Shown: in pieces, positions 1 to 49,300 of the stretch
Layout of the letters: each line of letters begins with the position of its first letter
Numbering within the stretch: position 1 is the stretch's first letter
Assembly: GCF_036365525.1 (NCBI RefSeq)
Contig: NC_090378.1
Coordinates: forward strand, 122,125,593 to 122,189,592
Length of the DNA stretch: 64,000 bases
Direction of reading: 5' to 3'
DNA from: Heterodontus francisci
Lineage: Eukaryota
Made by a program: the position numbers and the translations under genes
Notes under the pieces: model-generated
Told to the model about the DNA's origin: nothing
The model's database searches: none
Seen by the model: only the letters and a program-made list of their open reading frames with translations

Positions 1-3000
1 CCTGCACTGACACATCCCACAGTTATATATAATATATAATAATGGACACACAGTCCCACCTCCTGCACTGACACATCCCACAATCATATATAATATATAA
101 TAATGGACACACAGTCCCACCTCCTGCACTGACACGTCCCACAGTTATATATAATATATAATAATGGACACACAGTCCCACCTCCTGCACTGACACATCC
201 CACAGTTATATATAATATATAATAATGGACACACAGTCCCACCTCCTGCACTGACACATCCCACAGTTATATATGATATATAATAATGGACACACAGTCC
301 CACCTCCCGCACTGACACATCCCACAGTTATATATAATATATAATAATGTACACACAGTCCCACCTCCCGCACTGACACATCCCACAGTTATACATAATA
401 TATAATCATGGACGCACAGTCCCACCTCCTCGACTGACACCTCCCACAGTTATATATAATATTTAATAATGGACACACAGTCCCACCTCCCGCACTGACA
501 CATCCCACAGTTATATATAATATATAATAATGGACACACAGTCCCACCTCCCGCACTGACACATCCCACAGTTATATATAATATATAATAATGTACACAC
601 AGTCCCACCTCCCGCACTGACACATCCCACAGTTATATATAATATATAATCATGGATGCACAGTCCCACCTCCTCGACTGACACCTCCCACAGTTATATA
701 TAATATATAATAATGGACACACAGTCCCACCTCCTGCACTGACACATCCCACAGTTATAAATAATATATAATAATGGACACACAGTCCCACCTCCTGCAC
801 TGACACATCCCACAGTTATATATAATATATAATAATGGACGCACAGTCCCACCTGCTGTACTGACACATCCCACAGTTATATATAATATATAATAATGGA
901 CACACAGTCCCACCTCCTGTACTGACACATCCCACAGTTATATATAATATATAATAATGGACACACAGTCCCACCTCCCGCACTGACACATCCCACAGTT
1001 ATATATAATATATAATAATGGACACACAGTCCCACCTCCCGCACTGACACATCCCACAGTTATATATAATATATAATAATGGACACACAGTCCCACCTCC
1101 TGCACTGACACATCCCACAGTTATATATAATATATAATAATGGACGCACAGTCCCACCTCCTGTACTGACACATCCCACAGTTATATATAATATATAATA
1201 ATGGACACACAGTCCCACCTCCTGTACTGACACATCCCACAGTTATATATAATATATAATAATGGACACACAGTCCCACCTCCCGCACTGACACATCCCA
1301 CAGTTATATATAATATATAATAATGGACACACAGTCCCACCTCCCGCACTGACACATCCCACAGTTATATATAATATATAATAATGGACACACAGTCCCA
1401 CCTCCTGCACTGACACATCCCACAGTTATATATAATATATAATAATGGACACACAGTCCCACCTCCCGCACTGACACATCCACAGTTATATATAATATAT
1501 AATAATGGACACACAGTCCCACCTCCCGCACTGACACATCCACAGTTATATATAATATATAATAATGGACACACAGTCCCACCTCCTGTACTGACACATC
1601 CCACAGTTATATATAATATATAATAATGGACACACAGTCCCACCTCCCGCACTGACACATCCCACAGTTATATATAATATATAATAATGGACACACAGTC
1701 CCACCTCCTGCACTGACACATCCCACAGTTATATATAATTTATAATAATGAACACACAGTCCCAACCCCTGCACTGACACGTCCCACAGTTATATATCAT
1801 ATATAATAATGAACACACAGTCCCAACCCCTGCACTGACACGTCCCACAGTTATATATAATATATAATAATGAACACACAGTCCCAACCCCTGCATTGAC
1901 ACGTCCCACAGTTATATATAATATATAATAATGAACACACAGTCCCAGCCCCTGCACTGACACGTCCCACAGTTATATATAATATATAATAATGGATACA
2001 CAGTCCCACCTCCTGCACTGACGCAGCCCACAGTTATATATAATATATAATAATCGACACACTGTCCCACCTCCTGCACTGACACATCCCACAGTTATAT
2101 ATAATATATATTAATGGACACACAGTCCCACCTCCCGCACTGACACATCCCACAGTTATATATAATATATAATAATGGACACACAGTCCCACCTCCCGCA
2201 CTGACACATCCCACAGTTATATATAATATATAATAATGAACACACAGTCCCACCTCCCGCACTGACACATCCCACAGTTATATATAATATATAATAATGA
2301 ACACACAGTCCCAACCCCTGCACTGACACGTCCCACAGTTATATATAATACATATTAATGAACACACAGTCCCACCTGCTGTACTGACGCATCCCACAGT
2401 TATATATAATATATAATAATGAACACACAGTCCCAACCCCTGCACTGACACGTCCCACAGTTATATATAATATATAATAATGGACACACAGTCCCACCTC
2501 CTGAACTGACACGTCCCACAGTTATATATAATATATAATAATGAACACACAGTCCCAACCCCTGCACTGACACGTCCCACAGTTACATATAATATATAAT
2601 AATGAACACACAGTCCCAACCCCTGCATTGACACGTCCCACAGTTATATATAATATATAATAATGAACACACAGTCCCAACCCCTGCACTGACACGTCCC
2701 ACAGTTATATATAATATATAATAATGAACACACAGTCCCAACCCCTGCATTGACACGTCCCACAGTTATATATAATATATAATAATGAACACACAGTCCC
2801 AACCCCTGCATTGACACGTCCCACAGTTATATATAATATATAATAATGAACACACAGTCCCAACCCCTGCATTGACACGTCCCACAGTTATATATAATAT
2901 ATAATAATGAACACACAGTCCCAACCCCTGCATTGACACGTCCCACAGTTATATATAATATATAATAATGAACACACAGTCCCAACCCCTGCATTGACAC

Positions 3001-6000
3001 GTCCCACAGTTATATATAATATATAATAATGAACACACAGTCCCAACCCCTGCACTGACATGTCCCACAGTTATATATAATATATAATAATGAACACACA
3101 GTCCCAACCCCTGCACTGACACGTCCCACAGTTATATATAATATATAATAATGAACACACAGTCCCAACCCCTGCATTGACACGTCCCACAGTTATATAT
3201 AATATATAATAATGAACACACAGTCCCAGCCCCTGCACTGACGCGTCCCACAGTTATATATAATATATAATAATGGATACACAGTCCCACCTCCTGCACT
3301 GACGCAGCCCACAGTTATATATAATATATAATAATCGACACACTGTCCCACCTCCTGCACTGACACATCCCACAGTTATATATAATATATATTAATGGAC
3401 ACACAGTCCCACCTCCCGCACTGACACATCCCACAGTTATATATAATATATAATAATGGACACACAGTCCCACCTCCCGCACTGACACATCCCACAGTTA
3501 TATATAATATATAATAATGAACACACAGTCCCACCTCCCGCACTGACACATCCCACAGTTATATATAATATATAATAATGAACACACAGTCCCAACCCCT
3601 GCACTGACACGTCCCACAGTTATATATAATACATATTAATGAACACACAGTCCCACCTGCTGTACTGACGCATCCCACAGTTATATATAATATATAATAA
3701 TGAACACACAGTCCCAACCCCTGCACTGACACGTCCCACAGTTATATATAATATATAATAATGGATACACAGTCCCACCTCCTGCACTGACGCATCCCAC
3801 AGTTATATATAATATATAATAATCGACACACAGTCCCACCTCCTGTACTGACACATCCCACAGTTATATATAATATATAATAATGAACACACAGTCCCAC
3901 CTCCTGTACTGACACATCCCACTGTTATATATAATATATAATAATGGACACACAGTCCCACCTCCTTTACTGACAAATCCCACAGTTATATACAATATAT
4001 AATAATGGACACACAGTCCCACCTCCTGTACTGACACATCCCACAGTTATATATAATATATGATAATGGACACACAGTCCCACCACCTGCAATGACACAT
4101 CCCACAGTTATATATAATATATAATAATGGACACACAGTCCCACCACCTGCAATGAAACATCCCACAGTTATATATAATATATAATAATGGACACACAGT
4201 CCCACCTCCTGTACTGACACATCACACAGTTATATATAATATATAATAATGGACACACAGTCCCACCTCCTGTACTGACACATCCCACAGTTATATATAA
4301 TATATAATAATGGACACACAGTCCCACTTCCCGCACTGACACATCCCACAGTTATATATAATATATAATAATGGACACACAGTCCCACCTCCTGTACTGA
4401 CACATCACACAGTTATATATAATATATAATAATGGACACACAGTCCCACCTCCTGTACTGACACATCCCACAGTTATATATAATATATAATAATGGACAC
4501 ACAGTCCCACCTCCTGCACTGACACATCCCACAGTTATATATCATAAATAAAAATGGACACACAGTCCTACCTCCTGTACTGACACATCCCACACTTATA
4601 TATAATATATAATAATGGACACACAGTCCCACCTCCTGGACTGACACATCCCACAGTTATATATAATATATAATAATGGACACACAGTCCCACCTCCGGT
4701 ACTGACAAATCCCACAGTTATTTACAATATATAATAATGGACACACAGTCCCACCTCCTGCACTGACACATCCCACAGTTATATATAATATATAATAATT
4801 GACACACAGTCCCACCTCCGGTACTGACAAATCCCACAGTTATATATAATATATAATAATGGACACACAGTCCCACCTCCTGCACTGACACATCCCACAG
4901 TTATATATAATATATGATAATGGACACACAGTCCCACCACCTGCAATGACATATCCCACAGTTATATATAATATATAACAATGGACACACAGTCCCACCT
5001 CCTGTACTGACACATCCCACAGTTTTTTATCATATATGATAATGGACACACAGTCCCACCACCTGCAATGACACATCCCACATTTATATATAATATATAA
5101 TAATGGAGACACAGTCCCACCTCCTGTCGTGAAACATCCCACAGTTAGATATAAAAATAATAATGGACACACAGTCCCACCTCCGGTACTGACACATCCC
5201 ACAGTTATATATATAAATAATAATGGACACACATTCCCACCTCCTGTACGGATACATCCCTCATTTATATATAATATATAATAATGGAGACACAGTCCCA
5301 CCTCCTGTAGTGACACATCCCACAGTTAGATATAATATATAATAATGGACACACAGTCCCACCTCCTGTAGTGACATGTCCGACAGTTATATAGAATATA
5401 TAACAATGGACACACAGTCCAAACTCCGGTACTGACACGTCCCACAATAATATATAACATATACTCATAGACACACAGTCCCACCTCCTGCACTGACACA
5501 TCCCACAGTTATATATAAAAATAATAATGGACACACAGTCCCACCTCCTGCACTGACACATCCCACAATAATATATTATATAGAACAATGGACACACAGT
5601 CCCACCTCCTGTACTGACACATCCCACAGTTATATATAATATTTGATAATGGACACACAAGCCCACCACCTGCAATGACACATCCCACAGTTATATATAA
5701 TATATAATAATGGACACACAGTCCCACCTCCTGTACTGACACATCCCACAGTTTTTTATAATATATGATAATGGACACACAGTCCCACCTCCTGGACTGA
5801 CACATCCCACAGTTATATATAATATATAATAATGGACACACAGTCCCACCTCCTGTACTGACACATCCCACAGTTATATATAATATTTGATAATGGACAC
5901 ACAGTCCCACCACCTGCAATGACACATCCCACATTTATATATAATATATAATAATGAACACACAGTCCCACCTCCTGTCGTGAAACATCCCACAGTTAGA

Positions 6001-9000
6001 TATAAAAATAATAATGGAGACACAGTCCCACCTCCGGTACTGACACATCCCACAGTTAGATATAAAAATAATAATGGACACACAGTCCCACCTCCTGTAC
6101 TGACACATCCCACAATCATATATAATATATAATAATGGACACACAGTCCCACCTCCTGTACTGACACATCCCAGACTTATATATAATAAATAATAATGGA
6201 CACACAGTCCCACCTCCTGGACTGACACATCCCACAGTTATATATAATATATAATAATGGACACACAATCCCACCTCCTGTACTGACACATCCCACAATC
6301 ATATATAATATATAATAATGGACACACAGTCCCACCTCCTGTACTGACACATCCCACAATCATATATAATATATAATAATGGACACACAGTCCCACCTCC
6401 TGCACTGACACATCCCACAGTTATATATAATATATAATAATGGACACACAGTCCCACCTCCTGTACTGACACATCCCACAGTTATATATAATATATAATA
6501 ATGGACACACAGTCCCACCTCCCGCACTGACACATCCCACAGTTATATATAATAAATAATAATGGACACACAGTCCCACCTCCTCGACTGACACGTCCCA
6601 CAGTTATATATAATATATACTAATGGACACACAGTCCCACCTCCTGCACTGACACATCCCACAGTTATATATAATATATAATAATGGACACACAGTCCCA
6701 CCTCCTGCACTGACACATCCCACAGTTATATATGATATATAATAATGGACACACAGTCCCACCTCCCGCACTGACACATCCCACAGTTATATATAATATA
6801 TAATAATGTACACACAGTCCCACCTCCCGCACTGACACATCCCACAGTTATACATAATATATAATAATGGACACACAGTCCCACCTCCCGCACTGACACA
6901 TCCCACAGTTATATATAATATATAATAATGGACACACAGTCCCACCTCCTGCACTGACACATCCCACAGTTATAAATAATATATAATAATGGACACACAG
7001 TCCCACCTCCTGCACTGACACATCCCACAGTTATATATAATATATAATAATGGACGCACAGTCCCACCTGCTGTACTGACACATCCCACAGTTATATATA
7101 ATATATAATAATGGACACACAGTCCCACCTCCTGTACTGACACATCCCACAGTTATATATAATATATAATAATGGACACACAGTCCCACCTCCCGCACTG
7201 ACACATCCCACAGTTATATATAATATATAATAATGGACACACAGTCCCACCTCCTGTACTGACACATCCCACAGTTATATATAATATATAATAATGGACA
7301 CACAGTCCCACCTCACGCACTGACACATCCCACAGTTATATATAATATATAATAATGGACACACAGTCCCACCTCCTGTACTGACACATCCCACAGTTAT
7401 ATATAATATATAATAATGGACGCACAGTCCCACCTCCTGCACTGACACATCCCACAGTTATATATAATATATAATAATGGACGCACAGTCCCACCTCCTG
7501 TACTGACACATCCCACAGTTATATATAATACATAATAATGGACACACAGTCCCACCTCCTGCACTGACACATCCCACAGTTATATATAATATATAATAAT
7601 GGACGCACAGTCCCACCTCCCGCACTGACACATCCCACAGTTATATATAATATATAATAATGGACACACAGTCCCACCTCCTGTACTGACACATCCCACA
7701 GTTATATATAATATATAATAATGGACACACAGTCCCACCTCCTGTACTGACACATCCCACAGTTATATATAATATATCATAATGGACACACAGTCCCACC
7801 TCCCGCACTGACACATCCCACAGTTATATATAATTTATAATAATGGACACACAGTCCCACCTCCCGCACTGACACATCCACAGTTATATATAATATATAA
7901 TAATGGACACACAGTCCCACCTCCTGCACTGACACATCCCACAGTTATATATAATATATAATAATGGACGCACAGTCCCACCTCCCGCACTGACACATCC
8001 CACAGTTATATATAATATATAATAATGGACACACAGTCCCACCTCCTGTACTGACACATCCCACAGTTATATATAATATATAATAATGGACACACAGTCC
8101 CACCTCCTGTACTGACACATCCCACAGTTATATATAATATATCATAATGGACACACAGTCCCACCTCCCGCACTGACACATCCCACAGTTATATATAATA
8201 TATAATAATGGACACACAGTCCCACCTCCTGCACTGACACATCCCACAGTTATATATAATATATAATAATGGACACACAGTCCCACCTCCCGCACTGACA
8301 CATCCACAGTTATATATAATATATAATAATGGACACACAGTCCCACCTCCCGCACTGACACATCCCACAGTTATATATAATATATAATAATGGACACACA
8401 GTCCCACCTCCTGTACTGACACATCCACAGTTATATATAATATATCATAATGGACACACAGTCCCACCTCCCGCACTGACACATCCCACAGTTATATATA
8501 ATATATAATAATGGACACACAGTCCCACCTCCTGCACTGACACATCCCACAGTTATATATAATATATAATAATGGACACACAGTCCCACCTCCCGCACTG
8601 ACACATCCACAGTTATATATAATATATAATAATGGACACACAGTCCCACCTCCCGCACTGACACATCCCACAGTTATATATAATATATAATAATGGACAC
8701 ACAGTCCCACCTCCTGTTCTGACACATCACACATTTATATATAATATATAATAATGGACACACAGTCCCACCTCCTGTACTGACACATCCCACAGTTATA
8801 TATAATATATAATAATGGACACACAGTCCCACCTCCTGCACTGACACATCCCACAGTTATATATAATATATAATAATGGACACACAGTCCCACCTCCTGT
8901 TCTGACACATCACACATTTATATATAATATATAATAATGGACACACAGACCCACCTCCTGTTCTGACACATCACACATTTATAAATAATATATAATAATG

Positions 9001-9052
9001 GACATAGTCCCACCTCCCGCACTGACACATCCACAGTTATATTTATTATATC
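1..9052. repeat. 61-bp tandem satellite array (about 148 units; continues beyond the window start)
   Basis: Consensus unit cccacagttatatataatatataataatggacacacagtcccacctcctgcactgacacat repeated head to tail, with point variants and occasional 60-bp units. Confidence 0.98.
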
Positions 9053-9479
9053 ATAAACAGACGGTGTATTAAAACAGTTGCTTCAATCTCCTGTCTTACC
9101 TATCTGGGAAATATTTGCTGTTTTGTGCATTGCTGCCACATGTGTCGATGAGAGTGTTGACAGAAACATTCCCCTGAACGGTGTGAGGAATTGGGAAAGG
9201 ATGGAGGAGTTTAGAGAGGACTAGGAGCTGCTTTCTTCATCAGTGAGAATCTCACAGCTCTGGAGATTTGACATTTTGCTTCATTCGATTCTCTCTGGGT
9301 TCTCGTGGAGTCGCTTCATGAGCAAAGACTAATTATTGATCATTATTATTGACCCCCCATCCCAGGTCAGACACCCCAGGTCAGTTACTATGGAAACAGG
9401 TTTCTTCTCATCTGATTGGACAATCTGGTTGACACAATTTTCACCAATCAAAATCCAATTTAGAAAAGTGTCGAAATGA

Positions 9480-9905
9480 ATAAAACTGAAATCATAAATA
9501 GAAAGCAAACTGAACAAATTAAAGCCTGATTTTATTTTCACTATCCACTACAGTCTCCTGTCCCTGTGGTGCCCACTGCAGCCTGAAGGCCTCAAGTGAC
9601 ACAGCAGACACCCCCTGCTCCTTCTCCAGGGCCACCCGGGTGGGGACAATGCCATGGTAGAGAGACTGGCAGCCAGTGCCACCACCCCCATGGGTCCCAT
9701 CCAACTCGGGCCTGTGGATGGACACCTTGGCCAGGCCCAGGAGCAGACCCACGAGGAGGGGCCTCCAACCTGCCCACTCCCCTCTACACTGGGTGGCCAA
9801 AGATCAGGAGCGTGGGCCTGAATTAGAACCAGAGGATGAGGAGCAGCCCCTTCAAATAATGGAACAGGGGCCACAACCTCTCCCACTCCATGTAGACATG
9901 ATCCA
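9480..9905 (-). mobile_element. Tx1/L1-clade non-LTR retrotransposon 3' fragment
   Basis: Minus-strand peptide LLVGLLLGLAKVSIHR...RVALEKEQGVSAVSLEAF closely matches the C-terminus of the larger element at 29966-30505 (LLIGLLLGLAKVAIHR...RVSLEKEQAVSAGSIEAF). Confidence 0.8.
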
Positions 9906-10257
9906 CTGACTCTGAAACTCACTGTTTTCAAATGGTCCATGAGGAAGAGCAGAGTCAGCAACAGAAACATCACATTTACAGAAACACCCCTCCCCTTTTT
10001 TCCAGGGCACAGGCAGGTGAGCTCGGTTTGCTGGGAGATTTTCATTTTCCAGGAATTGAGTGGCTCCAGGCTTTTCCATCTGATGTGGTGGGAAGAGCAG
10101 CTGGAAGATTTATCATCGACAAGTAGAATTCCCAACTTTCCCAAGCACGGCAGCATGGAATTCAGACAGAGAGAGAGAGTGAAACAGAGACAGTAGGAGA
10201 GAGAGAGAAACAGAGACAGTGGGAGAGAGAGAATGACAGAAAGAGAGACATTGGGGG

Positions 10258-10418
10258 NNNNNNNNNNNNNNNNNNNNNNNNNNNNNNNNNNNNNNNNNNN
10301 NNNNNNNNNNNNNNNNNNNNNNNNNNNNNNNNNNNNNNNNNNNNNNNNNNNNNNNNNNNNNNNNNNNNNNNNNNNNNNNNNNNNNNNNNNNNNNNNNNNN
10401 NNNNNNNNNNNNNNNNNN
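10258..10418. other. Assembly gap (161 N) flanked by GA-rich low-complexity sequence
   Basis: Run of N characters, with GA-rich tracts at 10166-10257 and 10419-10540. Confidence 0.99.
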
Positions 10419-10435
10419 TAGACAGAGGGAAAGAG

Positions 10436-10508
10436 CACTAACCACTAACCACTGACCACCTCCAGGCGCGTATCCATTGTCTCTCGAGATAAGGAGGCCC
10501 AAAAGAAG
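10436..10508 (+). mobile_element. Possible RTE-type LINE 3' terminus
   Basis: ccacctccaggcgcgtatccattgtctctcgagataaggaggcccaaaagaaga resembles, from memory, 3' ends of shark RTE LINEs. Not verified. Confidence 0.3.
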
Positions 10509-10538
10509 AGCACAAGAGGGACAGCGTGAGAGAGAGAG

Positions 10539-11308
10539 ATGGCTGGTTGTCCCAGTGGACATTGGGACTCTGACGTCTGGCCTATATGAGGGTCCCGAGC
10601 CTGCCCATGTCATCAGCACTCGCCGGAGCAACTTTCTGGGAGGCAGCCTCCTAATTGGTCACCTCCACACTCACTGTCCTATGAATGATGGCGGTCAGGC
10701 TCCCGAGCCTGCAGGCCCAATCAGAGGGCCCACAGTGATGTCAGGCTGGCAGCTCCACCGGGAGAGGTGGGCCCTGCTGAAACAGGCAGGCGAGAGTGAG
10801 GGCCCCTCAACATGGAGATGCCCTCGGCTGCCTGCAGAGGAATAGTAAAATAAAAAGGGCTGAAGCCAGTTGGGCCATCAGGTTGAAGAGGGTTAGGATT
10901 AGGAAACTCCTCCACAGGATTATTCACAGGCGGGACTGCAGCTTTTCATCCCTGTAGCTCATTGGGACATAGAGTCTCCGTCTCCGATGGTCCCCTGGCC
11001 TGCTGCCGGGAGGGCTCCTCCATTGAGCTGGCGGCCTCCACACTCAGGGGTGGGGAGGCCGCTCCGACATTGGTAAAATACCAGCACCGGCTCAAAATGG
11101 CCCCTAAATGTGAACTTCATTGCTCTAATTGTCTGCCCATCTGCATGGAGCCAGCAGATGACCGGTTCCCAGTACACCCATGGGAAAGTAACCCGGAGGC
11201 GGGAATGTGTCAGGGAGCCATGTTGACACAGCTCGTCGTATTTTTCCCAGTCCTGCCCAACCTCCAAATGAGAACCCCGTCTCCATGGCACCGGGAGAAT
11301 TCATCCCA
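10539..11308. mobile_element. Putative non-autonomous DNA transposon (Harbinger-like) inserted into the GA tract
   Basis: GC-rich block interrupting GA-rich sequence on both sides. Ends are imperfect inverted repeats (ggctggttgtccc ... gggagaattcatccc). No credible ORF. Confidence 0.3.
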
Positions 11309-11315
11309 GTCTGTT

Positions 11316-11974
11316 AGAGACAGAGAGAGAGAAAGTGAGAGAGAGAGAAAGAGAGAGAGAGTGAGAGGGAGAAAAAGAGAGACAGAGTGAGAAAGAGAGA
11401 CAAAGTGAGAGAGTGAGAGAGAGAGAAAGAGAGAGATAGTGAGAGGGAGAAAAAGAGAGACAGAGTGAGACTGAATGAGAGAGAGTGAGAGTGGGAAAGA
11501 GAGAGAGAGTGAGAGAGAGAGAAAGAGAGAGACAGTGAGAGGGAGAAAAAGAGAGACAGAGTGAGGGAGTGAGAGAGATTGAGAAAGAGAGACAGAGTGA
11601 GTGAGGGAAAGAGAGAGACAGATTGAGAGAGAGTGTGAGAGAGAGAGAGCGTGTGACAGAGACAGAGTAACAGGGAGTGAGAGAGAGGGACATAATGAGA
11701 GAGTGAAAGAGACAGAGTGAGAGAAAACAATGAGAGAGAGACAGAATGTGAGAGAAACCCAAAGTAGCAGAGACAGAGTGTGACACACTGTGAACGACAC
11801 ACACAGACAGACAGACAGAAGCACACATAGAGACAGAGACAAATAGATATATATAGAGAGAGTGTGCGAGACAGAGACACACATACACACAGGCAAAGAG
11901 CGACAGAGAGAGAGACACAGTGACAGTGAAAGACAGAGAGAGGGTGAGAGTGAGTGAGTGAAACAGAGAGCAGA
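11316..11974. repeat. Degenerate (GA)n/purine-rich microsatellite immediately 5' of the J RSS
   Basis: About 660 bp of gagaga/gacaga/gtgaga with internal duplicated blocks (gtgagagggagaaaaagagagacagagtga). Confidence 0.95.
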
Positions 11975-12013
11975 GGATATTGTACAGCCCCTGCACTGGA
12001 AGCTGTCAGTGTG
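11975..12013 (-). promoter_or_regulatory. V(D)J recombination signal sequence of the J segment (23-bp spacer)
   Basis: On +: nonamer GGATATTGT (11975-11983; consensus GGTTTTTGT), exactly 23-nt spacer (11984-12006), heptamer CAGTGTG (12007-12013; consensus CACTGTG) abutting the J coding end. A J-side 23-RSS is the kappa configuration. Confidence 0.92.
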
Positions 12014-12048
12014 GTTTACGTTCGGTAAAGGAACCAAGCTTAGACTGA
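12014..12048 (+). CDS. IGKJ: Immunoglobulin light-chain J segment (kappa/type III), germline unjoined
   Basis: G TTT ACG TTC GGT AAA GGA ACC AAG CTT AGA CTG A = FTFGKGTKLRL with the FGXG motif, followed by consensus donor GTAAGT (12049-12054). The phase-1 A joins GC of the C exon to give Ser. Confidence 0.95.
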
Positions 12049-12584
12049 GTAAGTAAACCTCAATCCTCTGTTACTAATCCTTTAAATACAAAACTTTCTA
12101 AAACACAAATGCTGAATAGTGGAAGGTGTTAGAAAGGAGCTCCAGTCAATGAAATGGTTCATTGAAGAGCACTGTGTATAACAGGGTGCCCAGCTGTATT
12201 TCTTTAGTTACATTCCCCCTTTAACCAGCAAGATATAAGTAACCAACTTTTACCGAGTGTGTAGAGGAGATCTGGACGTTTGCAGACTGTGGTCACATTC
12301 CTGCTCCATGGTGTGAAATCCCTCACTGGACTCCTGCCAGTCTCAGTGTGAGCTCTGGGTCTCTGTCACAGTCTCTGATATAACTGATCTCAGCACCAGC
12401 ACAGTGAGACACCGAGGTCCCACCTCCCCCAGCTTTAACTCTGCTCTGTCCACTCCCTGCTTATCTCTTGTCAAAGTTCTGATGAAAAACAATGACAGCA
12501 GGGCTCCCAATCCAGTGGCTTCAGTGTTCCAGGGTTTTGGGGAAACTCTCAGTTGCTTTGTCTTTGGGTCGAGTTCAGGTCGAT

Positions 12585-13536
12585 TGTTCTGACCAGGTGA
12601 TGAAAGTCTCTCGGGGTCTTTCACAGCCTTCACCTGGTCTTACTGTAACAAGATTTAATTTGAAACACACTGTGTTTTGAGCTCCTTCTCGGTGAATCCT
12701 TGTTCACCGCTTTCCAATTGTGAGGCAAAGAAATGAGCACAAACAGGTTTTCTTAGGTTTAAAGAAGAAAGGTGAAATTTATTAAAACTTAAACTAAAGC
12801 TCTAATTCAGTTAACGCGTACGGATACACGCCCCGCCCCACGCTAGCATGCATATGCGATACACACATGCAAATAGAGACAGAAAAGAGCAGAAGAAAAA
12901 TAAAGTGCAGAGGTTTGAGGCAATCTCTGAAGAGAGTTTTTGTTACTGTGCTTCGAGCTCACTGTAGTCCTTGCTTGTCGGTAGATCTTGCTTTTCATTG
13001 GGGCCCAGTATTCTTCTTAAACCTTGTTCACTGTGGGAGACTTTTCCCTCTTGCGGTTCATATGTCTTCAATGATTTCTGAAGCTGGTGAGAGAGATGAA
13101 AGCCGACGGGAGAGAGACAGTGGCAAGCCAGCCATGAAAAGTCTTTTCAGTCCAGGAGCAAACAGCTTTCTGAGTTCAAATTCTCTGTGGCAAGTTCAAA
13201 TTTAAAAAACTACAACAGCCAGTTAGTCATGTGACTAAACTGGTCTGGCCATGTCCGATGGTGTAGTCGGCCATCTTAGCAGTCAAGCTGGAATGGGAGC
13301 TCCTCCACCCTCAATGTCTGGTAATCAAAAGTCCATTGTGGATTGAATTTGTCAGGAAATGGTCTTTTGTCCCTTCCAAGTACTGTCTGTTATTATGCCA
13401 ATGTCTTTCCAGTCAAGGGCGTGGTGCTGTTTTTTAAAAACAAGTTCTTTCTTTACTCCAGCAACAGATTAAAAAGCAGTGTTCATATGGTGAAATTAAT
13501 GTGCCTCATTCTTGGCAGGTGGGGGCCTGCATGACA
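12585..13536 (-). mobile_element. Putative solo LTR in the J-C intron
   Basis: Termini TGTTCTGA...CATGACA (TG...CA), imperfect 5-bp flanks tcgat/ctgat, minus-strand AATAAA (tttatt 12778-12783) about 200 bp from its 3' end, and no coding content. Confidence 0.6.
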
Positions 13537-13569
13537 CTGATATTTATCTCTGAACCGACGTCACTGAAA

Positions 13570-13745
13570 ATGTTCATTTACCTCATTGCTGTTTGTGGGA
13601 TCTTGCTGTGCACAAATTGTCTGCCACATTTCCTACATTCCAACAGTGACTGCTCTTTAAACAAGTCCTTCATTGTCTGTAAATGACTTTGGGAGGTCCT
13701 GAGGTGTGAAATACTCGATATAAATACAAGTCTTTCTTTTCTTTT
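13570..13745 (+). mobile_element. Deu-type SINE 3' fragment
   Basis: gggatcttgctgtgcacaaatt...ctttggga..tcctgaggt...aaatacaagtctttcttt is shared with the fuller copy at 14150-14537. Confidence 0.65.
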
Positions 13746-14149
13746 TATTAACCGGGAGCTCCCACAATACCCTGTTGATTAAAGCTGAACCCAGCAGAAA
13801 ATCCACAGAAAACTGACTAATGTTTGTCTGATTTGTCTGTGTGTTTATTAGACATGACTGAGCAGATAGCAAGAGTTTCAGCAGCAACAAAGGTGTCACT
13901 CTAGTGCCCCTCCCACTTTCCCCATCGACTTACATAATACTTACAGGGAAAGGGCTCAGCATCTGCCATCGACTGGTTAAATGTCACCCCTCTAGACTAC
14001 AGGTCTCCCGCAATCTGCTCTCCATCTCTCTCCTGAAGGCACTATCTCTGGCTGGGGCACAGCTCCACCCTCCCCAAGTGGCCTCATTCCTCCAAGTGTG
14101 AGCCGGGAGGTTGAGAATGGCAGACTATTCGACTGTGAGGTGTTAGTGT

Positions 14150-14537
14150 TGTCTCAGTGGGTAACACTCTCACCTCTGAGTCAGAATGTCGTGGCTTCAG
14201 GTCCCACTCCAGAGACTGGAGCACATAATCCAGGCTGACACTGCAGTGCAGTATTGAGGGAGTGCTGCATTGTCAGAGGTGCTGTCTTTCAGATGAGACA
14301 AACTGACGTCTGCCCTCTCAGGTGAATGTAAAGGATCCCACTGCACTATTAGAAGAGCAGGGGAATTCTCCTCGGTGTCCTGGACAATGTTTATCATTCA
14401 ACCAACAGCACTGAAAATCAGATTATCTGCTCATTATCACTCAGCTGTCTGGGATCTTGCTGTGCACAATTGGCCATAAAACACTTTGGGACATTCTGAG
14501 GTGGTGACAGGCACTATAGAAATGCAAGTCTTTCTTT
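14150..14537 (+). mobile_element. tRNA-headed SINE (DeuSINE/SacSINE1-like)
   Basis: Pol III A-box-like tcagtgggtaac and B-box-like gcttcaggtcc, central aaaggatccca..gcactatt.gaagagcagggg..ttctcc..ggtgtcctgg block, and tail aaatgcaagtctttcttt. Confidence 0.7.
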
Positions 14538-14969
14538 GAGTTTGGAGACTCCTGATCCTGACCCTCGCGCACACTCTCACCTTCCAGGGGTCATGGGATC
14601 ATTTGGAGCAGTGACCCTGCCTGACCCCAGTACACTGAGACTGATTATAACCTCACCCTTGACCTCACCCCAGTGTTGGACAAGAAGGTTTGAAATGAAA
14701 TCGAAACCTTCCACACCGACACCCAACATGAATCCTTTCTGACATGTGTTGATACAAGTCTGCTCCAGTGTTCCGGAGAAAGTTCTCCGGATGTGTGTGT
14801 GATCTGAGATTTGTTAACACTGAGCCTGTTTCCTCCAGATAGACTGATCTACAGTTCGAGCTTCCTGTCAGGTTAACAGTGTCTTAAAGGGACACTGAGT
14901 CTTTAAACACTCTTACTATTAACCATTTCAGTGCTGAATTGGTGATAAACCTTCATTAGAGACGTTTAA

Positions 14970-17900
14970 ACAGAGAAACATAGAAAGATTTACAATGCAG
15001 ATGAGGCCATTCGGCCCATGGTTTCCATGCCAGCTGAAAATGAGTTAACAAACCTAATCCCACTTTCCAGCTCTTATTCCCATATCCCTGTAGGTTTCGG
15101 CACCTCAAGTGCATATCCAAGTGTTTTTTCAATGTGATGAGAGTTTCTGCCTCTACCACCCTTTCAGGCAGTGAGTTCCAGACCCCCAACACCCTCTGGG
15201 TGAAAAAATTACTCCTCAATTCACCTCTCATCCTTCCACCAATTAATTTAAATCTATGCCGCTGGGTTATTGACCTCTCTGCTGCGGGAAGTAGGTCCTT
15301 CCTATCCACTCTATCTAGGCCCCTCATAATTTTATACACCTCAATTAAATCTCCCCTCAGTCTCCTCTGTTCCAGAGATAACAATCCCAGCCGATCCTAT
15401 CTTTCCTCATAGGTAAAATTCTCCATTCCTGGTAACATCCTCGTAAATCTCCTCTGTACCCCCTCTTGTTTGATCACATCCTTCCTGTAATGTGGTAACC
15501 AGAACTGTACACAGTTTTCTAGCTGTGGTCTAACTAGTGTTTTCTACAGTTCTGGCATAACCTCCTTAACCTTATACTCCAGGCCTCAGCAAATAAGGGC
15601 AAGCATCCCGTAAGCCTTCTTAACCACCTTATCTAGCTGTCCTGCTACCTTCAGGGATCTGTGGACATGAACTCCAAGGTCCCTCAGTTCCTCTACACTT
15701 CTCAGTATCATCCCATTTATTGGATATTCCTTTGCCTCGTTTGTCCTCCCCAAATGCATTACCTCACATTTCTCTGGACTGAATTCCATTTGCTATTTTT
15801 CTGCCCACCTGACCAGTCCATTGATATCTTCCTGCAGTCTGCAGCCTTGTTCCTCATTATCAACCGCAAGGCCTATTTTTGTATCATCTACAAACTTCTT
15901 AATACCCCTTCCATTTAAATCTAAATCATTGAAAGACACTATAATCAGCAGTGGACCCAGTACTGAGCCCTGCAGAACCCCACTGAAAACAGCTTTCCAC
16001 TCACAAAAACACCCACCGACAATAAAACTTTGCTTCCTGTCACTGACTCAATTTTTGATCCAATTTCCCACTTTTCCTTGGATCCCATGGGCTTTTAATT
16101 TTCTGATCAGTCTGCCATGTGGGATCTTATCAAAGGCCTTGCTAAAATCCATGTCGACTCTTTCAAACATGACGCCCACTTTGACACTCCTTGTAACCTC
16201 CTCATGAAATGTAATCGTTAGTCAGACACAAACTTCCCTTAACAAATCCATGCTGACTGTCCTGAATTAATCCCGTGCTTCTCTAAATGATGGTTTTTAC
16301 TGTCTCTCAGAACTTTTTCCAATAATTTTCCCACTGCCGAGGTTATGCTGACTGATCTGTAATTACTTGGTCCATCCATTCTTTCCTTTTTAAACAACAG
16401 TAGAACATTAGCAGTCCTCAGGTACCATGCCTTTAACCAGAGAGAATTGGAAAATGAGGATCAGAGCCTCCGCTATTTCTTCCATTGCTTCCTTTGCAGC
16501 CTGGGATACATTTCACCTGGGCCTGGTGATTTATCCATTTTCAAGGATGTAAAACACCTTAATATTTCCTCCCTCACTAAGTTTATCCCATCCAAGATTT
16601 CACACTCCTCCTCCTTCACTACAATGTCTGCTTTGTCACTCTCTGTGAAAAAAGGCACAAAGTATTCATTCAGAAACATGTCCACATCCTCCGCCTCCAC
16701 ACACAGGTTAGGTTTTTGGACTCCAATTTACCCCGCTCTTTTCTTAGTGATTCTCCGGCTCTTTATGTATTTATTAAACATCTTTGGGTTTTCCTTGATT
16801 TTACTAGCTCATATTTTTTCATGTCCTCTCTTTGTTTCCCTAATTTCCTTTTCAATTTCACCCCTGAACTCTCTACACTTCTCCAGGTTTTCTGCAGTAT
16901 CAAGATCTCAGAATCTGATACAAGTTTCCCTTTTGTACCTTATCCTACTGTGTATGCTCTTTGCCATCTGTGGTAAATGGAGATTTGGGAGTCTCACCCT
17001 TTTTCTTTGTGGGAACATGTTTGTTCTGAGCCCTCACTATCTCCTCCTTGAATGCCTCCCACTGCTCTGACACTGGTTTACCTTCAAGTAGCTGTTTCCA
17101 GTCTAATTCTGACAAATCACATCTCAGCTTAGTAAAATTGGCCTTTCCCCAGTTTAAAACTTTTACTCTTGGTCCATCTTTATCCTTTTCTATAACTGCT
17201 CTAAATCTAACTGAATTATAATCACTGCCACTAAAACACTCTCACATTGATCCCCTTCCACCTGCCCAGATTCATTCCTGAAAACTAAGTCCAGAACTGT
17301 ATCTTCTCTTGTTGGTCTTTCTACTGATGAGAAAAGTTCTCCCGAATGTATTTTAGGAATTCTGCGCCCTCTGTACCTTTTATACTGAATTTATCCCAGT
17401 TAATATTTGGAAAGTTGAAATCCCCTCCTATTACTGGCCTGTTGTTTCTGCACTTTTCAGTAATTTGCCGACACATTTGCTCTTCTCTCTCCCTCTGACT
17501 GTTTGAGGGTCTATAGCAGGAGTCTGGAACCTGCGACTCCGGAGCCACATGTGACTCTTTAACAGCTCATTTACAGCTGCCAACCTTTTCCAGTTGGATC
17601 ACATTAACATGAAAAAGGCCGAAAAAATTCAGTCAAGGAAAGTAAACCGTGTTTTTATTGTGGGGATAAAAGACTAATCATTATGTTGTACTTTATAGTT
17701 TCAAATGATTATTTGAATGAAAAGCATCATCATTGTCTAAATGAACTTGTTTGAGTGGTACAGCTTCCATTGGAGGAACAGTTTTTATGTTTGTGACCAT
17801 TATTGTTTCTAATATCACTGAGATGATAAATTATTCTGCTATTACAAACTTCTTTTTTATTACGAGAATCAATAGCTGAAAAAATTGTCTTAATTCTGCA

Positions 17901-18450
17901 CATCTGAATTTAAATTTTTTTTTTAAATTTTGACTTTACTGACAAAATTATACAAAAACAAGTCAAAAAATGCAATAATTCAGAGTGAAACCTATTCTGA
18001 TTTTGACTTTTTTTCTATTGATACATAAATTCAATACATGTATTTTATTTATTATATATACAAAGTGTGCATTCTACCAGAGGCACTTGGCAATTTAGAA
18101 GGTATTTGGTTTAGAAATGCTGAATTTTGGTCTTGACACTGCCAGTAGTTTTTATTTTAGGTAATATTTTTGAAAACAGTCTCTTCAGGTAATAAAGGTT
18201 ACCGACCCCTGGTCTATATATAGTGCAGCAATGTGATTGCCCCTTTTTTGTTCCTACGTTCATTCAAATGTCCTCATTCGATGATCCTGCTTGAATATCA
18301 TCCCTCCTCACAGCTGCGATTTTTTCTTTTGACTAATATTGTGAAACCCTTCTCCTTTTTTCTCTCCCTCTCTATCCCATTGGGAAACTCAGTATCAGGA
18401 ATATTGAGCTGCCATTCCTGCCCTTCTTTCAGACTCATTTCAGTAATAAC
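14970..18450 (-). mobile_element. Decayed CR1 LINE (ORF2 remnants), interrupted by a hAT insertion
   Basis: Minus-strand peptides LEQRRLRGDLIEVYKIM, FSPEKCEVMHLG, KSPGPGEMYPR and GDFNFPNINW. 3' end near 14970. The sequence resumes at 18212 after the hAT element. Confidence 0.92.
17517..18211. mobile_element. Non-autonomous hAT (Charlie-like) DNA transposon, 695 bp
   Basis: TIRs caggagtctggaacct / aggttaccgacccctg (13/16 match) and 8-bp target duplication gtctatag (17509-17516) / gtctatat (18212-18219). AT-rich interior. Confidence 0.88.
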
Positions 18451-18451
18451 T

Positions 18452-19303
18452 GTCATCAAGGCAGCATTTGAGTCTGGAATCAAGAAGCCCGAGCAAAACT
18501 AGAGTCAGTGTGAATCAGGGGGAAATCTCTCGACTGTTTGGAGTCATACCTAGCGCAAAGGAAGATAGCTGTGGTTGTTGGAGGTCAATCATCTCAGCTC
18601 CAGGACGTCACTGCAGGAGTTCCTCAGCATAGTGTCCTAGGCCCAACCATCTTCAGTTGCTTCATCAATGACCTTCCCTCCACCATAAGGTCAGAAGAGC
18701 GGATGTTCGCTGATGATTGCACAACCTTCAGCACCATTCGCGAATCCACAGAAACGGAAACAGACTATCTAGAAATGCAGCAAAACCTGGACACTGTCCA
18801 CGCTTGGGCTGATAAGTAACAAGTAACATTCGCGTCACACAAGTGAAAGGCAATGACTATCTCAAATAAGAAAGAATCTAACCATCTCCCCTTGACATTC
18901 AATGGCATTACGATCGCTGAATCCCCCACTATCAACATCCTGAGGGTTACCATTGACCAGAACCTGAACTGCAGTAGCCCTGTAAATACTGTGGCTACAA
19001 GAGCAGGTCAAAGGCTGGCCACCTAGGAGGAAAGGCCAGCAGTTGTATGGGAACACCAACACCTGCAAGTTCTCCTCCAAGCCACACACCATCCTGACTT
19101 GGAACTATATCGCCGTTCCTTCACTGTCACTGGGTCAAAATCCTGGAACTCCCTGCCTAACAGCACTGTGGGTGTACCTACCCCACATGGACTGCAGCAG
19201 TTCAAGAAGGCAGCTCACCACCACCTTCTCAAGGGCTATTAGTGATGGGCAATAAATGCTGGCCTGGCCAGCGACGCCCACATCCCATGAATGAATAAAA
19301 AAA
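18452..19303 (+). mobile_element. CR1-clade LINE 3' fragment (second family)
   Basis: RT motifs GVPQHSVLGPTIF and MFADDC, with 3' tail gggcaataaatgctggcctggccagcgacgcccacatcccatgaatgaataaaaaaa. The same family occurs inverted at 29530-29878. Confidence 0.88.
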
Positions 19304-19494
19304 ACTACCATATCATACTTCCAAGAGCAGTCGAACACAATTTAACCAGTTGAACATCAAACCATCCACTGTCTTTGTATTTTAGACTAAACCTAGCAAG
19401 CGAGGCAAATTAAGAAGTGATGGTGCTCATTTCTAACGATTCAACACCAGCCGTAGTTCATTAACTCAGCTGTCTGTTATCTGATGTGACATAT

Positions 19495-19730
19495 CCAAAC
19501 ACAGAAACACCCACAGAAACATACACATAAATATACACATAGAACACACAAATATACACAGAGAATACACAAATGTACAGACAGAACACACAAATAAATA
19601 CATGAAACACACAAATATATACAGAGGACACACAAATATACCGACAAAAGACACAAATATATACATAAAACACACAAATATATACAGAGAGCAAAAAATA
19701 TACAAATAGAACACAGAAATACACAAACAT
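19495..19730. repeat. AC-rich degenerate minisatellite just upstream of the C-exon acceptor
   Basis: About 21-bp units such as acacacaaatatacacagaga. Confidence 0.75.
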
Positions 19731-19763
19731 GCAGTGATTAACAGTTTTTCTCTTCTCTTTCAG

Positions 19764-20092
19764 GCCGAGAGAAGTCTCAACCCACACTGACCCTGATGCC
19801 CCCCTCGCCGGAGGAGGTCAAGGCCAAGGGCACTGCCACCCTGGTGTGCCTTGCCGATCACTTCTATCCCGATGAAGTGGGGGTGGAGTGGAAGAAGGAC
19901 GGTGCAGCCATTTTGGCCGGAGTTCAGACCAGCAATTACCTGCGAGCTTCGGACAGCACCTACAGTGTCAGCAGCCTGCTGACCCTCTCTGGCTCTGACT
20001 GGGAGTCCAACGCCCGCTTCTCCTGTGCCCTCACCCACGAGACCCTGTCCTCTCCCCTCAGTAAGAGTGTGAGCAGATCAGAATGTGTGTAG
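19764..20092 (+). CDS. IGKC: Immunoglobulin light-chain constant exon, cartilaginous-fish kappa (type III/NS4) class
   Basis: Acceptor ttttctcttctctttcag at 19763. Open frame (S)REKSQPTLTLMPPSPEEVKAKGTATLVCLADHFYPDEVGVEWKK...YSVSSLLTLSGSDWESNARFSCALTHETLSSPLSKSVSRSECV*. C1-set Ig motifs (ATLVC, FYP, W, CxxxH) and a penultimate Cys for the heavy-chain disulfide. In frame with J. Confidence 0.96.
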
Positions 20093-20521: not shown

Positions 20522-20622
20522 AATAAACCTTCATTCTCCCTGTGAATTTCTCCAGCTTCCTCTCACTGAGCTGTTTATTCAAGTCTTTTTACTGTAAATG
20601 TAAATCTGTAAAAGGTAATAAA
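20522..20622 (+). terminator. Candidate polyadenylation signals of the light-chain transcript
   Basis: AATAAA at 20522-20527 and 20617-20622, about 430 and 525 bp after the stop codon. Confidence 0.55.
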
Positions 20623-46364: not shown

Positions 46365-49300
46365 ACTGGATTGTGAAGTGTGATGTTCCTGAGTACACAG
46401 ACTGGATTGTGAAGTGTGATCTACCTGAGTACACAGACAGGACTGTGAAGCGTGATGTTCCTGAGTACACAGACTGGATTGTGAAGTGTGATGTATCTGA
46501 GTACACAGACTGGATTGTGAAGTGTGATGTTCCTGAGTACACAGACTGGATTGTGAAGTGTGATGTTCCTGAGTACACAGACTGGATTGTGAAGTGTGAT
46601 GTACCTGAGTACACAGACTGGATTGTGAAGTGTGATGTCACTGAGTACACAGAATGGATTGTGAAGTGTGATGTACCTGAGTACACAGAATGGATTGTGA
46701 AGTGTGATGTTCCTGAGTACACAGACTGGATTGTGAAGTGTGATGTACCTGAGTACACAGACTGGATTGTGAAGTGTGATGTCACTGAGTACACAGAATG
46801 GATTGTGAAGTGTGATGTACCTGAGTACACAGAATGGATTGTGAAGTGTGATGTACCTGAGGACACAGAATGGATTGTGAAGTGTGATGTACCTGAGTAC
46901 ACAGACCGGATTGTGAAGTGTGATGTACCTGAGTACACAGACTGGATTGTGAAGTGTGATCTACCTGAGTACACAGACAGGACTGTGAAGCGTGATGTTC
47001 CTGAGTACACAGACTGGATTGTGAAGTGTGATGTACCTGAGTACACAGACTGGATTGTGAAGTGTGATGTTCCTGAGTACACAGACTGGATTGTGAAGTG
47101 TGATGTACCTGAGTACACAGACTGGATTGTGAAGTGTGATGTCACTGAGTACACAGAATGGATTGTGAAGTGTGATGTACCTGAGTACACAGAATGGATT
47201 GTGAAGTGTGATGTACCTGAGGACACAGAATGGATTGTGAAGTGTGATGTACCTGAGTACACAGACCGGATTGTGAAGTGTGATGTATCGGAGTACACAG
47301 ATTGGATTGTGAAGTGTGATGTACCTGAGTACACAGAATGGATTGTGAAGTGTGATGTACCTGAGGACACAGACCGGATTGTGAAGTGTGATGTATCTGA
47401 GTACACAGATTGGATTGTGAAGGGTGATGTACCCGAGTACACAGACTGGATTGTGAAGTGTGATGTAACTGAGTACACAGACAGGACTGTGAAGCGTGAT
47501 GTTCCTGAGTACACAGACTGGATTGTGAAGTGTGATGTACCTGAGTACACAGACTGGATTGTGAAGTGTGATGTTCCTGAGTACACAGACTGGATTGTGA
47601 AGTGTGATGTACCTGAGTACACAGACTGCATTGTGAAGTGTGATCTACCTGAGTACACAGACAGGACTGTGAAGCGTGATGTTCCTGAGTACACAGACTG
47701 GATTGTGAAGTGTGATGTACCTGAGTACACAGACTGGATTGTGAAGTGTGATCTACCTGAGTACACAGACAGGACTGTGAAGCGTGATGTTCCTGAGTAC
47801 ACAGACTGGATTGTGAAGTGTGATGTACCTGAGTACACAGACTGGATTGTGAAGTGTGATGTTCCTGAGTACACAGACTGGATTGTGAAGTGTGATGTAC
47901 CTGAGTACACAGACTGGATTGTGAAGTGTGATGTTCCTGAGTACACAGACTGGATTGTGAAGTGTGATGTACCTGAGTACACAGACTGGATTGTGAAGTG
48001 TGATGTCACTGAGTACACAGACTGGATTGTGAAGTGTGATGTCACTGAGTACACAGAATGGATTGTGAAGTGTGATGTACCTGAGTACACAGAATGGATT
48101 GTGAAGTGTGATGTACCTGAGGACACAGAATGGATTGTGAAGTGTGATGTACCTGAGTACACAGACCGGATTGTGAAGTGTGATGTACCTGAGTACACAG
48201 ACTGGATTGTGAAGTGTGATCTACCTGAGTACACAGACAGGACTGTGAAGCGTGATGTTCCTGAGTACACAGACTGGATTGTGAAGTGTGATGTACCTGA
48301 GTACACAGACTGGATTGTGAAGTGTGATGTTCCTGAGTACACAGACTGGATTGTGAAGTGTGATGTACCTGAGTACACAGACTGGATTGTGAAGTGTGAT
48401 GTCACTGAGTACACAGAATGGATTGTGAAGTGTGATGTACCTGAGTACACAGAATGGATTGTGAAGTGTGATGTACCTGAGGACACAGAATGGATTGTGA
48501 AGTGTGATGTACCTGAGTACACAGACCGGATTGTGAAGTGTGATGTATCGGAGTACACAGATTGGATTGTGAAGTGTGATGTACCTGAGGACACAGACCG
48601 GATTGTGAAGTGTGATGTATCTGAGTACACAGATTGGATTGTGAAGGGTGATGTACCCGAGTACACAGACTGGATTGTGAAGTGTGATGTAACTGAGTAC
48701 ACAGACAGGACTGTGAAGCGTGATGTTCCTGAGTACACAGACTGGATTGTGAAGTGTGATGTACCTGAGTACACAGACTGGATTGTGAAGTGTGATGTTC
48801 CTGAGTACACAGACTGGATTGTGAAGTGTGATGTACCTGAGTACACAGACTGGATTGTGAAGTGTGATCTACCTGAGTACACAGACAGGACTGTGAAGCG
48901 TGATGTTCCTGAGTACACAGACTGGATTGTGAAGTGTGATGTACCTGAGTACACAGACTGGATTGTGAAGTGTGATCTACCTGAGTACACAGACAGGACT
49001 GTGAAGCGTGATGTTCCTGAGTACACAGACTGGATTGTGAAGTGTGATGTACCTGAGTACACAGACTGGATTGTGAAGTGTGATGTTCCTGAGTAAACAG
49101 ACTGGATTGTGAAGTGTGATCTACCTGAGTACACAGACAGGACTGTGAAGCGTGATGTTCCTGAGTACACAGACTGGATTGTGAAGTGTGATGTACCTGA
49201 GTACACAGACTGGATTGTGAAGTGTGATGTTCCTGAGTACACAGACTGGATTGTGAAGTGTGATGTACCTGAGTACACAGACTGGATTGTGAAGTGTGAT

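Follow-up and report, generated by a model that had tools for sequence, protein, structure and literature searches.

The 64,000-nucleotide (nt) stretch of Heterodontus francisci DNA analysed here, referred to below as the window (NC_090378.1; G000:C8:122125593-122189592), carries the joining (J) segment and constant (C) exon of an immunoglobulin (Ig) kappa light chain gene, which is cluster 18 of the 28 kappa clusters identified in this genome. A first-pass annotation of the window had described a J segment with a 23-nt-spaced recombination signal sequence (23-RSS), an open frame and a consensus donor, followed by an intact C exon in phase with it, and the sequence bears out each of these points. 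The J-RSS is made up of a nonamer (GGATATTGT, positions 11975–11983), a 23-nt spacer and a heptamer (CAGTGTG, 12007–12013), with 1 + 2 mismatches to the consensus. The C exon matches the Pfam C1-set profile (E 1e-22), and all 30 matches returned at E<=1e-30 in a search with C are shark proteins, 72–99% identical and most of them named kappa light chain; a PDB search gave generic Ig constant-domain matches only. A single base defines the AAILAG allele of this exon, which is limited to cluster 18 and its twin, cluster 24 (2 of the 28).

No variable (V) exon is present in the 64-kb window, where tblastn with four shark kappa chains finds J and C as its sole matches, and no 12-RSS can be identified there at <=3 mismatches. 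The first-pass annotation had likewise seen no leader, V or 12-RSS and had offered three explanations: (i) the V lies more than 12 kb away across a satellite, (ii) the J–C unit is an orphan that could serve only the V of another cluster or give a V-less J–C transcript and (iii) the V is lost in a gap at positions 10258–10418. The first of these is correct. The 100 kb examined upstream of the window contain one leader–V unit, which lies ~24.8–24.2 kb ahead of the first window base. Its V exon matches the V-set profile (E 8e-19), and the V and C of cluster 18 are 77% and 84% identical, respectively, to nurse shark chain P0008. The V 12-RSS is perfect (CACAGTG-12-ACAAAAACC), with its heptamer 24,270 nt before the window, and it faces the J 23-RSS, the kappa pattern that we take to be defining. 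Perfect sites of this form number 26 in the 6-Gb genome, 23 of which are kappa V signals; the remaining three lie within 13 kb of each other on C34. The V–J span is 36,284 nt and consists of a 33,283-nt array of a 61-bp satellite, starting 5 nt past the V nonamer, followed by 2,961 nt to J. The array comprises ~546 units, is free of N and begins 24.2 kb before the window. Cluster 18 is a chondrichthyan Ig kappa split cluster of the NS4 (type III) kind.

The orphan reading had one point in its favor, the lack of a V inside the window. A V linked in cis, upstream in the right order and orientation, and the 1:1:1 ratio of V, J and C in the genome refute it, barring a misjoin of the assembly within the array, and we can scarcely credit it any longer. 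A V hidden in the N stretch is also rejected. At 161 nt the stretch could not accommodate a V exon of 298 nt; no N occurs in the genome copy of the J side, so the stretch in the window does not mark an assembly gap; and array and J lie equally far apart in cluster 18 and its twin (2,961 nt in each).

DNA searches of the genome match C and V 28 times each and J 29 times. All 28 V, 28 J and 28 C segments lie on C8 between 115.67 and 124.82 Mb in strict V–J–C order, with the same orientation within each triplet, and are divided by strand into 15 minus clusters on the left and 13 plus clusters on the right. The region thus forms a 9-Mb mirror with the V ends pointing to its center, and the pairs 9/23, 10/22 and 11/21 are identical over 1,732 bases. 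V frames and C frames are open in all 28 clusters, and 26 have no evident signal defect; the two single defects are a leader donor AT in cluster 4 (L017) and a J heptamer CATACTG in cluster 13 (L036), the frames of both being otherwise open. A tree of all 28 clusters recovers the three mirror pairs and the tandem pairs 6/12, 18/24 and 19/25, with 8 of 21 inner forks unsettled. The 29th J is a genuine orphan, a degenerate kappa pseudo-J on another contig (L068:4950-5056; G000:C2:125446248) with a GA-rich upstream flank, a degenerate heptamer, a GTAAAT donor and no V or C within the surrounding 10 kb.

The V–J distance ranges from 7,539 to 216,649 nt over the 28 clusters, with a median of 48,950 nt. 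Both ends of the interval were fetched for every cluster, and in each the repeat begins 4–7 nt past the V nonamer and stops 2.7–5.4 kb before J. Germline-joined V–J was found in 0 of 28 clusters, and no short or joined kappa cluster occurs among the 28 matches in the whole assembly. The locus resembles neither a translocon, in which several V segments serve one J–C set, as the order here is 1:1:1, nor a series of compact miniloci, given its minimum V–J distance. Multi-kb spacing occurs in 28 of 28 clusters, an outcome that the first-pass annotation had itself named as a refutation of its reading; cluster 18 is therefore not special within the species but an ordinary member of the kappa family of this genome, and the orphan reading was wrong. 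What is unusual is a species-wide kappa architecture that the annotation had not foreseen, and this architecture, a V–J gap filled with satellite, is the finding reported here. The features of cluster 18 are collected in Table 1.

Table 1. Features of kappa cluster 18 (window positions unless a contig is named)
Feature	Position	Strand	Remarks
Leader, 186-nt GT-AG intron, V exon (298 nt, open) and 12-RSS	G000:C8:122100789-122101349 (L045:498-1058)	+	Outside the window
61-bp satellite array, 3' part	1..9056	+	Period 61
Post-array spacer, ~2.9 kb, with GA-rich tract	9057..11974		Between array and J-RSS
J 23-RSS (CACACTG-23-ACAATATCC)	11975..12013	-	Faces V 12-RSS; deletional orientation
J kappa segment FTFGKGTKLRL	12014..12048	+	Donor GTAAGT at 12049
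J–C intron, 7,715 nt	12049..19763	+	From sequence; acceptor AG at 19762-19763
C kappa exon, intact	19764..20092	+	Phase 1; frame open up to stop
Two AATAAA polyadenylation-like signals (20522, 20617)	20522..20622	+	Putative, from sequence

Several elements around the segments are common to the family. J–C spacing is 4.0–10.8 kb over the 28 clusters. Long parts of the post-array spacer are common to the J sides of 19 clusters (cluster 18 counted), and only a short piece is found in the other nine; in cluster 18 the spacer also contains the end of a LINE-like (long interspersed nuclear element) sequence at window positions 10443–10509. The V promoter of cluster 18 has a TATA-like box at −67 and a ATTTACAT motif at −114 from the ATG, and ATTTACAT is present in all 28 V promoters, where it stands in place of ATTTGCAT, which we take to be the canonical octamer. 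No CTCF-like site with <=2 mismatches to the consensus was found at the V side; a site at the V-RSS or in the post-array spacer was rejected as a candidate, the only matches being two weak ones in the J–C intron. A 36-bp satellite occurs on each side of cluster 18, past C at window positions 46365–64000 and ahead of V at ~46.7–37.3 kb before the window (L004-L005).

The arrays of clusters 18 and 24 were read whole and the interiors of others were sampled. In samples of 5 kb taken from the middle of the interval in 20 of the 28 clusters, satellite makes up at least 99.8% of the DNA in 17 and 98, 94 and 71% in the others. The last two samples (clusters 7 and 17) are broken by young LINE pieces with short target duplications, a label that we assign from a reverse-transcriptase-like frame; insertions of this kind inside the arrays fit weak constraint on the array. 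The LINE-like copies in cluster 7 (L163), in cluster 17 (L172), at window positions 10443–10509 and in L009 are 99–100% alike, a 1,461-nt copy has a 465-codon open frame and both array insertions lie in the AT-rich part of the unit. Unit number per array varies ~60-fold, from ~55 to 3,460. Summed over the clusters, the satellite amounts to ~1.49 Mb, ~24,000 units or ~16% of the 9.2-Mb Ig region, which is an upper estimate because the remaining interiors were only sampled.

As far as the sampling reaches, the repeat is specific to the kappa locus. The genome has 5,077 exact matches to a 42-nt core of the unit, fewer than the ~7,100 expected from the kappa intervals alone at the 29% exact rate of V-side samples, and the first 100 of these all fall in cluster 1. 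Two rare unit variants were found genome-wide only within V–J intervals (33 of 33 and 56 of 56 matches, 89 of 89 together), in a search for exact variants that is blind to diverged copies elsewhere. The repeat occurs at none of 20 non-kappa V loci, which comprise one split light chain cluster and 19 other V types, joined genes or unresolved loci. The split cluster, on C36, of another isotype and presumably sigma-like, has a V–J distance of 373 nt, and this single light chain control does not support a genome-wide inflation of Ig spacers in a 6-Gb genome. Many V genes with a 23-RSS are also found on small contigs (G000:C407, C761, C779, C1675, C2233 and C876), some with near-identical layout; these are possibly a T-cell receptor V array in redundant assembly pieces.

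The repeat is likely to be older than this species. Sequencing run X15, which is DNA-like and from another organism, contains a contig of 807 nt that carries leader, V, RSS and the initial 46 nt of a repeat unit, ~85% identical to the sequence described here, and joints between tandem 61-nt units are found in X15 and, in one case, in run X13 from a further organism. These contigs make it likely that the unit, its position behind the V-RSS and some tandem amplification are shared with other sharks.

Comparison of near-identical clusters indicates how the arrays behave. Over 1,728 bases of exon and flank, clusters 18 and 24 show a single difference, and the 11 kb upstream of them is 99.94% alike, whereas many units have been inserted or deleted between their arrays (33,283 versus 32,388 nt), mostly in mid-array. 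The pair 19/25 has three base differences and intervals of 22.6 and 28.5 kb; the pair 20/26 has 17 base differences and four gaps, with intervals of 81.3 and 7.5 kb. Change in array length far outpaces change in the flanks. It might be argued that the long intervals, or some of the twins, are products of assembly, with repeats over-expanded or haplotypes duplicated. Clusters 6 and 12 are indeed identical in 1,731 bases and in the length of the interval (27,375 nt), the three mirror pairs show no difference in either exons or flanks, and false duplication of some cluster pairs is possible. Nevertheless, no N was found in the array pieces in which N was counted, the arrays hold ordered, cluster-specific variants, the junction of V, RSS and repeat is present in short-read contigs of X1 and X15, and the 28 matches in the assembly include no short or joined kappa cluster. 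An artefact could alter copy number or array lengths but would hardly account for arrays of many kb in every cluster, and we regard this explanation as very unlikely.

The satellite might instead have been selected as a brake that, through distance, heterochromatin or decoy signals, lowers joining per cluster and so aids light chain exclusion among 28 near-identical genes. In a variant of this proposal, a scanning RAG complex could cut at top-strand CAC motifs facing the J-RSS and thereby leave a dead V–satellite–J allele. The array is kept in all 28 clusters, is always oriented with the gene and starts within 7 nt of the nonamer. In cluster 18, CAC occurs 2,740 times on the top strand of the array and 14 times on the bottom strand, with 965 copies of CACAGT, and the consensus unit contains a 23-RSS-like CACAGTT-23-ACACAGTCC that was matched in 15 of 3,000 dinucleotide shuffles (a test chosen post hoc). 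In the available text of published work, convergent CAC motifs are described as low-level targets of RAG scanning in mouse (PMC11153149) and cryptic signals in mouse gamma satellite as able to rearrange (PMC2193808). The nonamer-like word, however, is merely the second CACAGT of the unit, and the J 23-RSS requires a partner with a 12-spaced nonamer, which is absent from the common unit forms (all >=5 mismatches); perfect heptamers number zero in the cluster 18 array. A unit without a 12-spaced nonamer leaves a decoy role possible yet unsupported. The ~60-fold spread of array length, its shifts between near-identical twins and the LINE pieces within arrays also speak against a selected length, runs X1 and X2 yield kappa V contigs in thousands, and the nurse shark is described as having 50–70 kappa genes with short spacers (PMC2193156, PMC2435157). 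On balance, a selected brake seems improbable.

Evidence for joining across the array comes from transcript-like contigs. In RNA-like contigs of X1 and X2 the leader is spliced across its 186-nt GT-AG intron, and V ends continue into J. The last bases of V are private to clusters 18 and 24, and at 99% likeness contigs from all three RNA-like runs (X1, X2 and X7) track the cluster 18/24 V to position 1029 or 1031 and then pass into J. The V–J junctions differ, being in-frame in X2 and X7 and out-of-frame in X1 (frames read by eye), and one X1 contig (993–1092) is an unjoined V–RSS–repeat. Somatic V–J joining and a spliced transcript are therefore found for the V type of clusters 18 and 24, between which the contigs do not separate. 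Because a V of cluster 18 sequence is found joined to J in transcripts, B cells are likely to excise the whole repeat.

We conclude with good confidence that cluster 18 is a complete split kappa V–J–C cluster in which the 61-bp repeat was likely multiplied in place, and from which RAG probably removes all 36 kb in B cells. In the history that we envisage, a repeat unit would already have lain behind the V-RSS when cluster duplication began, and the arrays would since have grown or shrunk one by one through unequal exchange or slippage. As the spacer is excised and carries no coding load, its expansion would be tolerated and is probably close to neutral. Joining across 7.5–217 kb would presumably require, beyond local access, a long-range step, either loop extrusion with RAG scanning or diffusion aided by the consensus V-RSS, and most joins would be expected to fall within the cluster of origin. 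A long-range joining step is known from the mouse Igk and Igh loci. The consensus V-RSS need not be an adaptation to distance; in mouse Igk, strong RSSs are reported to favor diffusional joining (PMC11153149, in the text available).

A number of points weigh against this account. Runs X1, X2, X7 and X3 derive from one sample, their contigs are short and their RNA nature is the guess of a tool. Run X3, a DNA run, leaves the 3' end of V and its RSS uncovered and does not enter the evidence. The transcripts do not distinguish cluster 18 from cluster 24. The J type seen in X2 and X7 (TTACGTTCGG) is that of cluster 18 but is common to 11 of the 28 clusters, so joining within the cluster is consistent with the contigs yet unproven, and the base that would narrow this J type to four clusters lies one position past the contig ends shown. 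A fourth loose end (X2, position 1023) joins a cluster 18/24-like V end to a TTAACGTTTGG J, a type that is absent from cluster 18 and occurs in clusters 2, 4, 6, 9, 12, 20, 23 and 26. The evidence base is one assembly and one haplotype, and absolute array lengths come from the assembly alone. Finally, neutrality rests on the turnover argument, and retention of the repeat, which is seen in all 28 clusters and in another organism, could also reflect selection.

The discordant X2 contig may represent either a cross-cluster join or a hypermutated V of another cluster. If the former, the locus could act as a partial translocon, in which a RAG reach of 100–200 kb lets a V join the J of a downstream cluster and so provides combinatorial pairing. 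The distance from V to the J of the next cluster is shorter than the longest V–J interval within a cluster in 6 of 26 cases, and below 124 kb in two of 26. Clusters 20 and 26 are among the possible J donors, and the joins V24–J26 and V18–J20 would span 244 and 322 kb. The contig is, however, one of only four informative loose ends; of the other three, two have the cluster's own J type and one is compatible with it. Its letters could also stem from tandem hypermutation in a V of the cluster 2 type, and nurse shark IgH genes are described, in the available part of the source, as joining almost entirely within the minilocus (PMC2435157). We consider a partial translocon unlikely. A broader conjecture combines this idea with the selected brake: the satellite would be a length-tunable rheostat on rearrangement, acting through distance and CAC decoys, and with V segments able to join neighboring J–C units the locus would be intermediate between clusters and a translocon. 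We put this forward tentatively, as a rather doubtful proposal.

Comparison with published systems is limited to the portions of the sources that were available. The closest is the nurse shark NS4 kappa family (Lee et al. 2000), with a V–J distance of 502–524 bp, a leader intron of 186 bp and ~10% germline-joined genes (PMC2193156). The likeness to NS4 (type III) includes one V, J and C per cluster, a leader intron of identical length and split V and J flanked by RSSs. In contrast, V–J is 15- to 425-fold longer here (71-fold in cluster 18), is filled with one satellite, and joined genes are absent rather than ~10%. The nurse shark IgH miniloci (Malecek et al. 2008) are similar as independent clusters on which exclusion must act, but their segments lie ~400 bp apart and long-distance recombination with contraction was argued to be absent (PMC2435157), whereas four of the 28 intervals described here exceed the 90-kb mouse VH–D gap quoted in the same paper. 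Mouse gamma satellite (Cowell et al. 2003) is a tandem repeat with heptamer-like motifs, 23-spaced nonamer-like words and active cryptic RSSs (PMC2193808); it accounts for 6% of the genome and is not tied to Ig genes, whereas the shark repeat occupies ~1.5 Mb (an upper estimate) between each V and J, and any RAG activity on it is putative. The available text of four papers that cover cluster organization (PMC4279169, PMC5192425, PMC12227049, PMC13320880) describes no long kappa spacer, and the matches to a supplement table of PMC12227049 include no kappa cluster coordinates. We found no published account of a satellite between shark V and J in a search that did not extend to subscription papers or to supplements on bioRxiv, which does not establish that none has appeared in print.

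The gene family has been recorded under other descriptions. Four Heterodontus francisci kappa records (P0002–P0005) have C regions 94–99% identical to that of cluster 18, and P0004 is a full V–J–C chain of this family. The gene models P0002, P0003 and P0005 bridge V and J with extra residues, treating the interval as if it were an intron, and the spacer appears in none of their names. Read by eye, P0004 appears to combine a V resembling those of clusters 11/21, whose interval is 51 kb, with a J of the FTF type; the first half of its C is of the major type and the second half of the cluster 17 type, which may reflect an allele, a conversion or a cloning chimera.

The architecture has a practical consequence, in that short-read or windowed annotation will call such J–C units orphans and gene predictors will take the interval for an intron. 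Even if the repeat is neutral, the occupation of ~16% of a 9.2-Mb Ig region (the upper estimate) by one locus-specific satellite is unusual. Shark Ig miniloci are the standard case of V(D)J joining without a long-range step (PMC2435157), and satellite-split kappa clusters challenge the published view that such miniloci need no long-range joining. With 28 near-identical genes whose promoters and RSSs are alike, a 29-fold range of V–J distance and twins that are otherwise nearly equal, the family constitutes a natural experiment that bears on the relation of distance to V usage, on loop extrusion and RAG scanning in the B cells of cartilaginous fish and on the autonomy of individual clusters.

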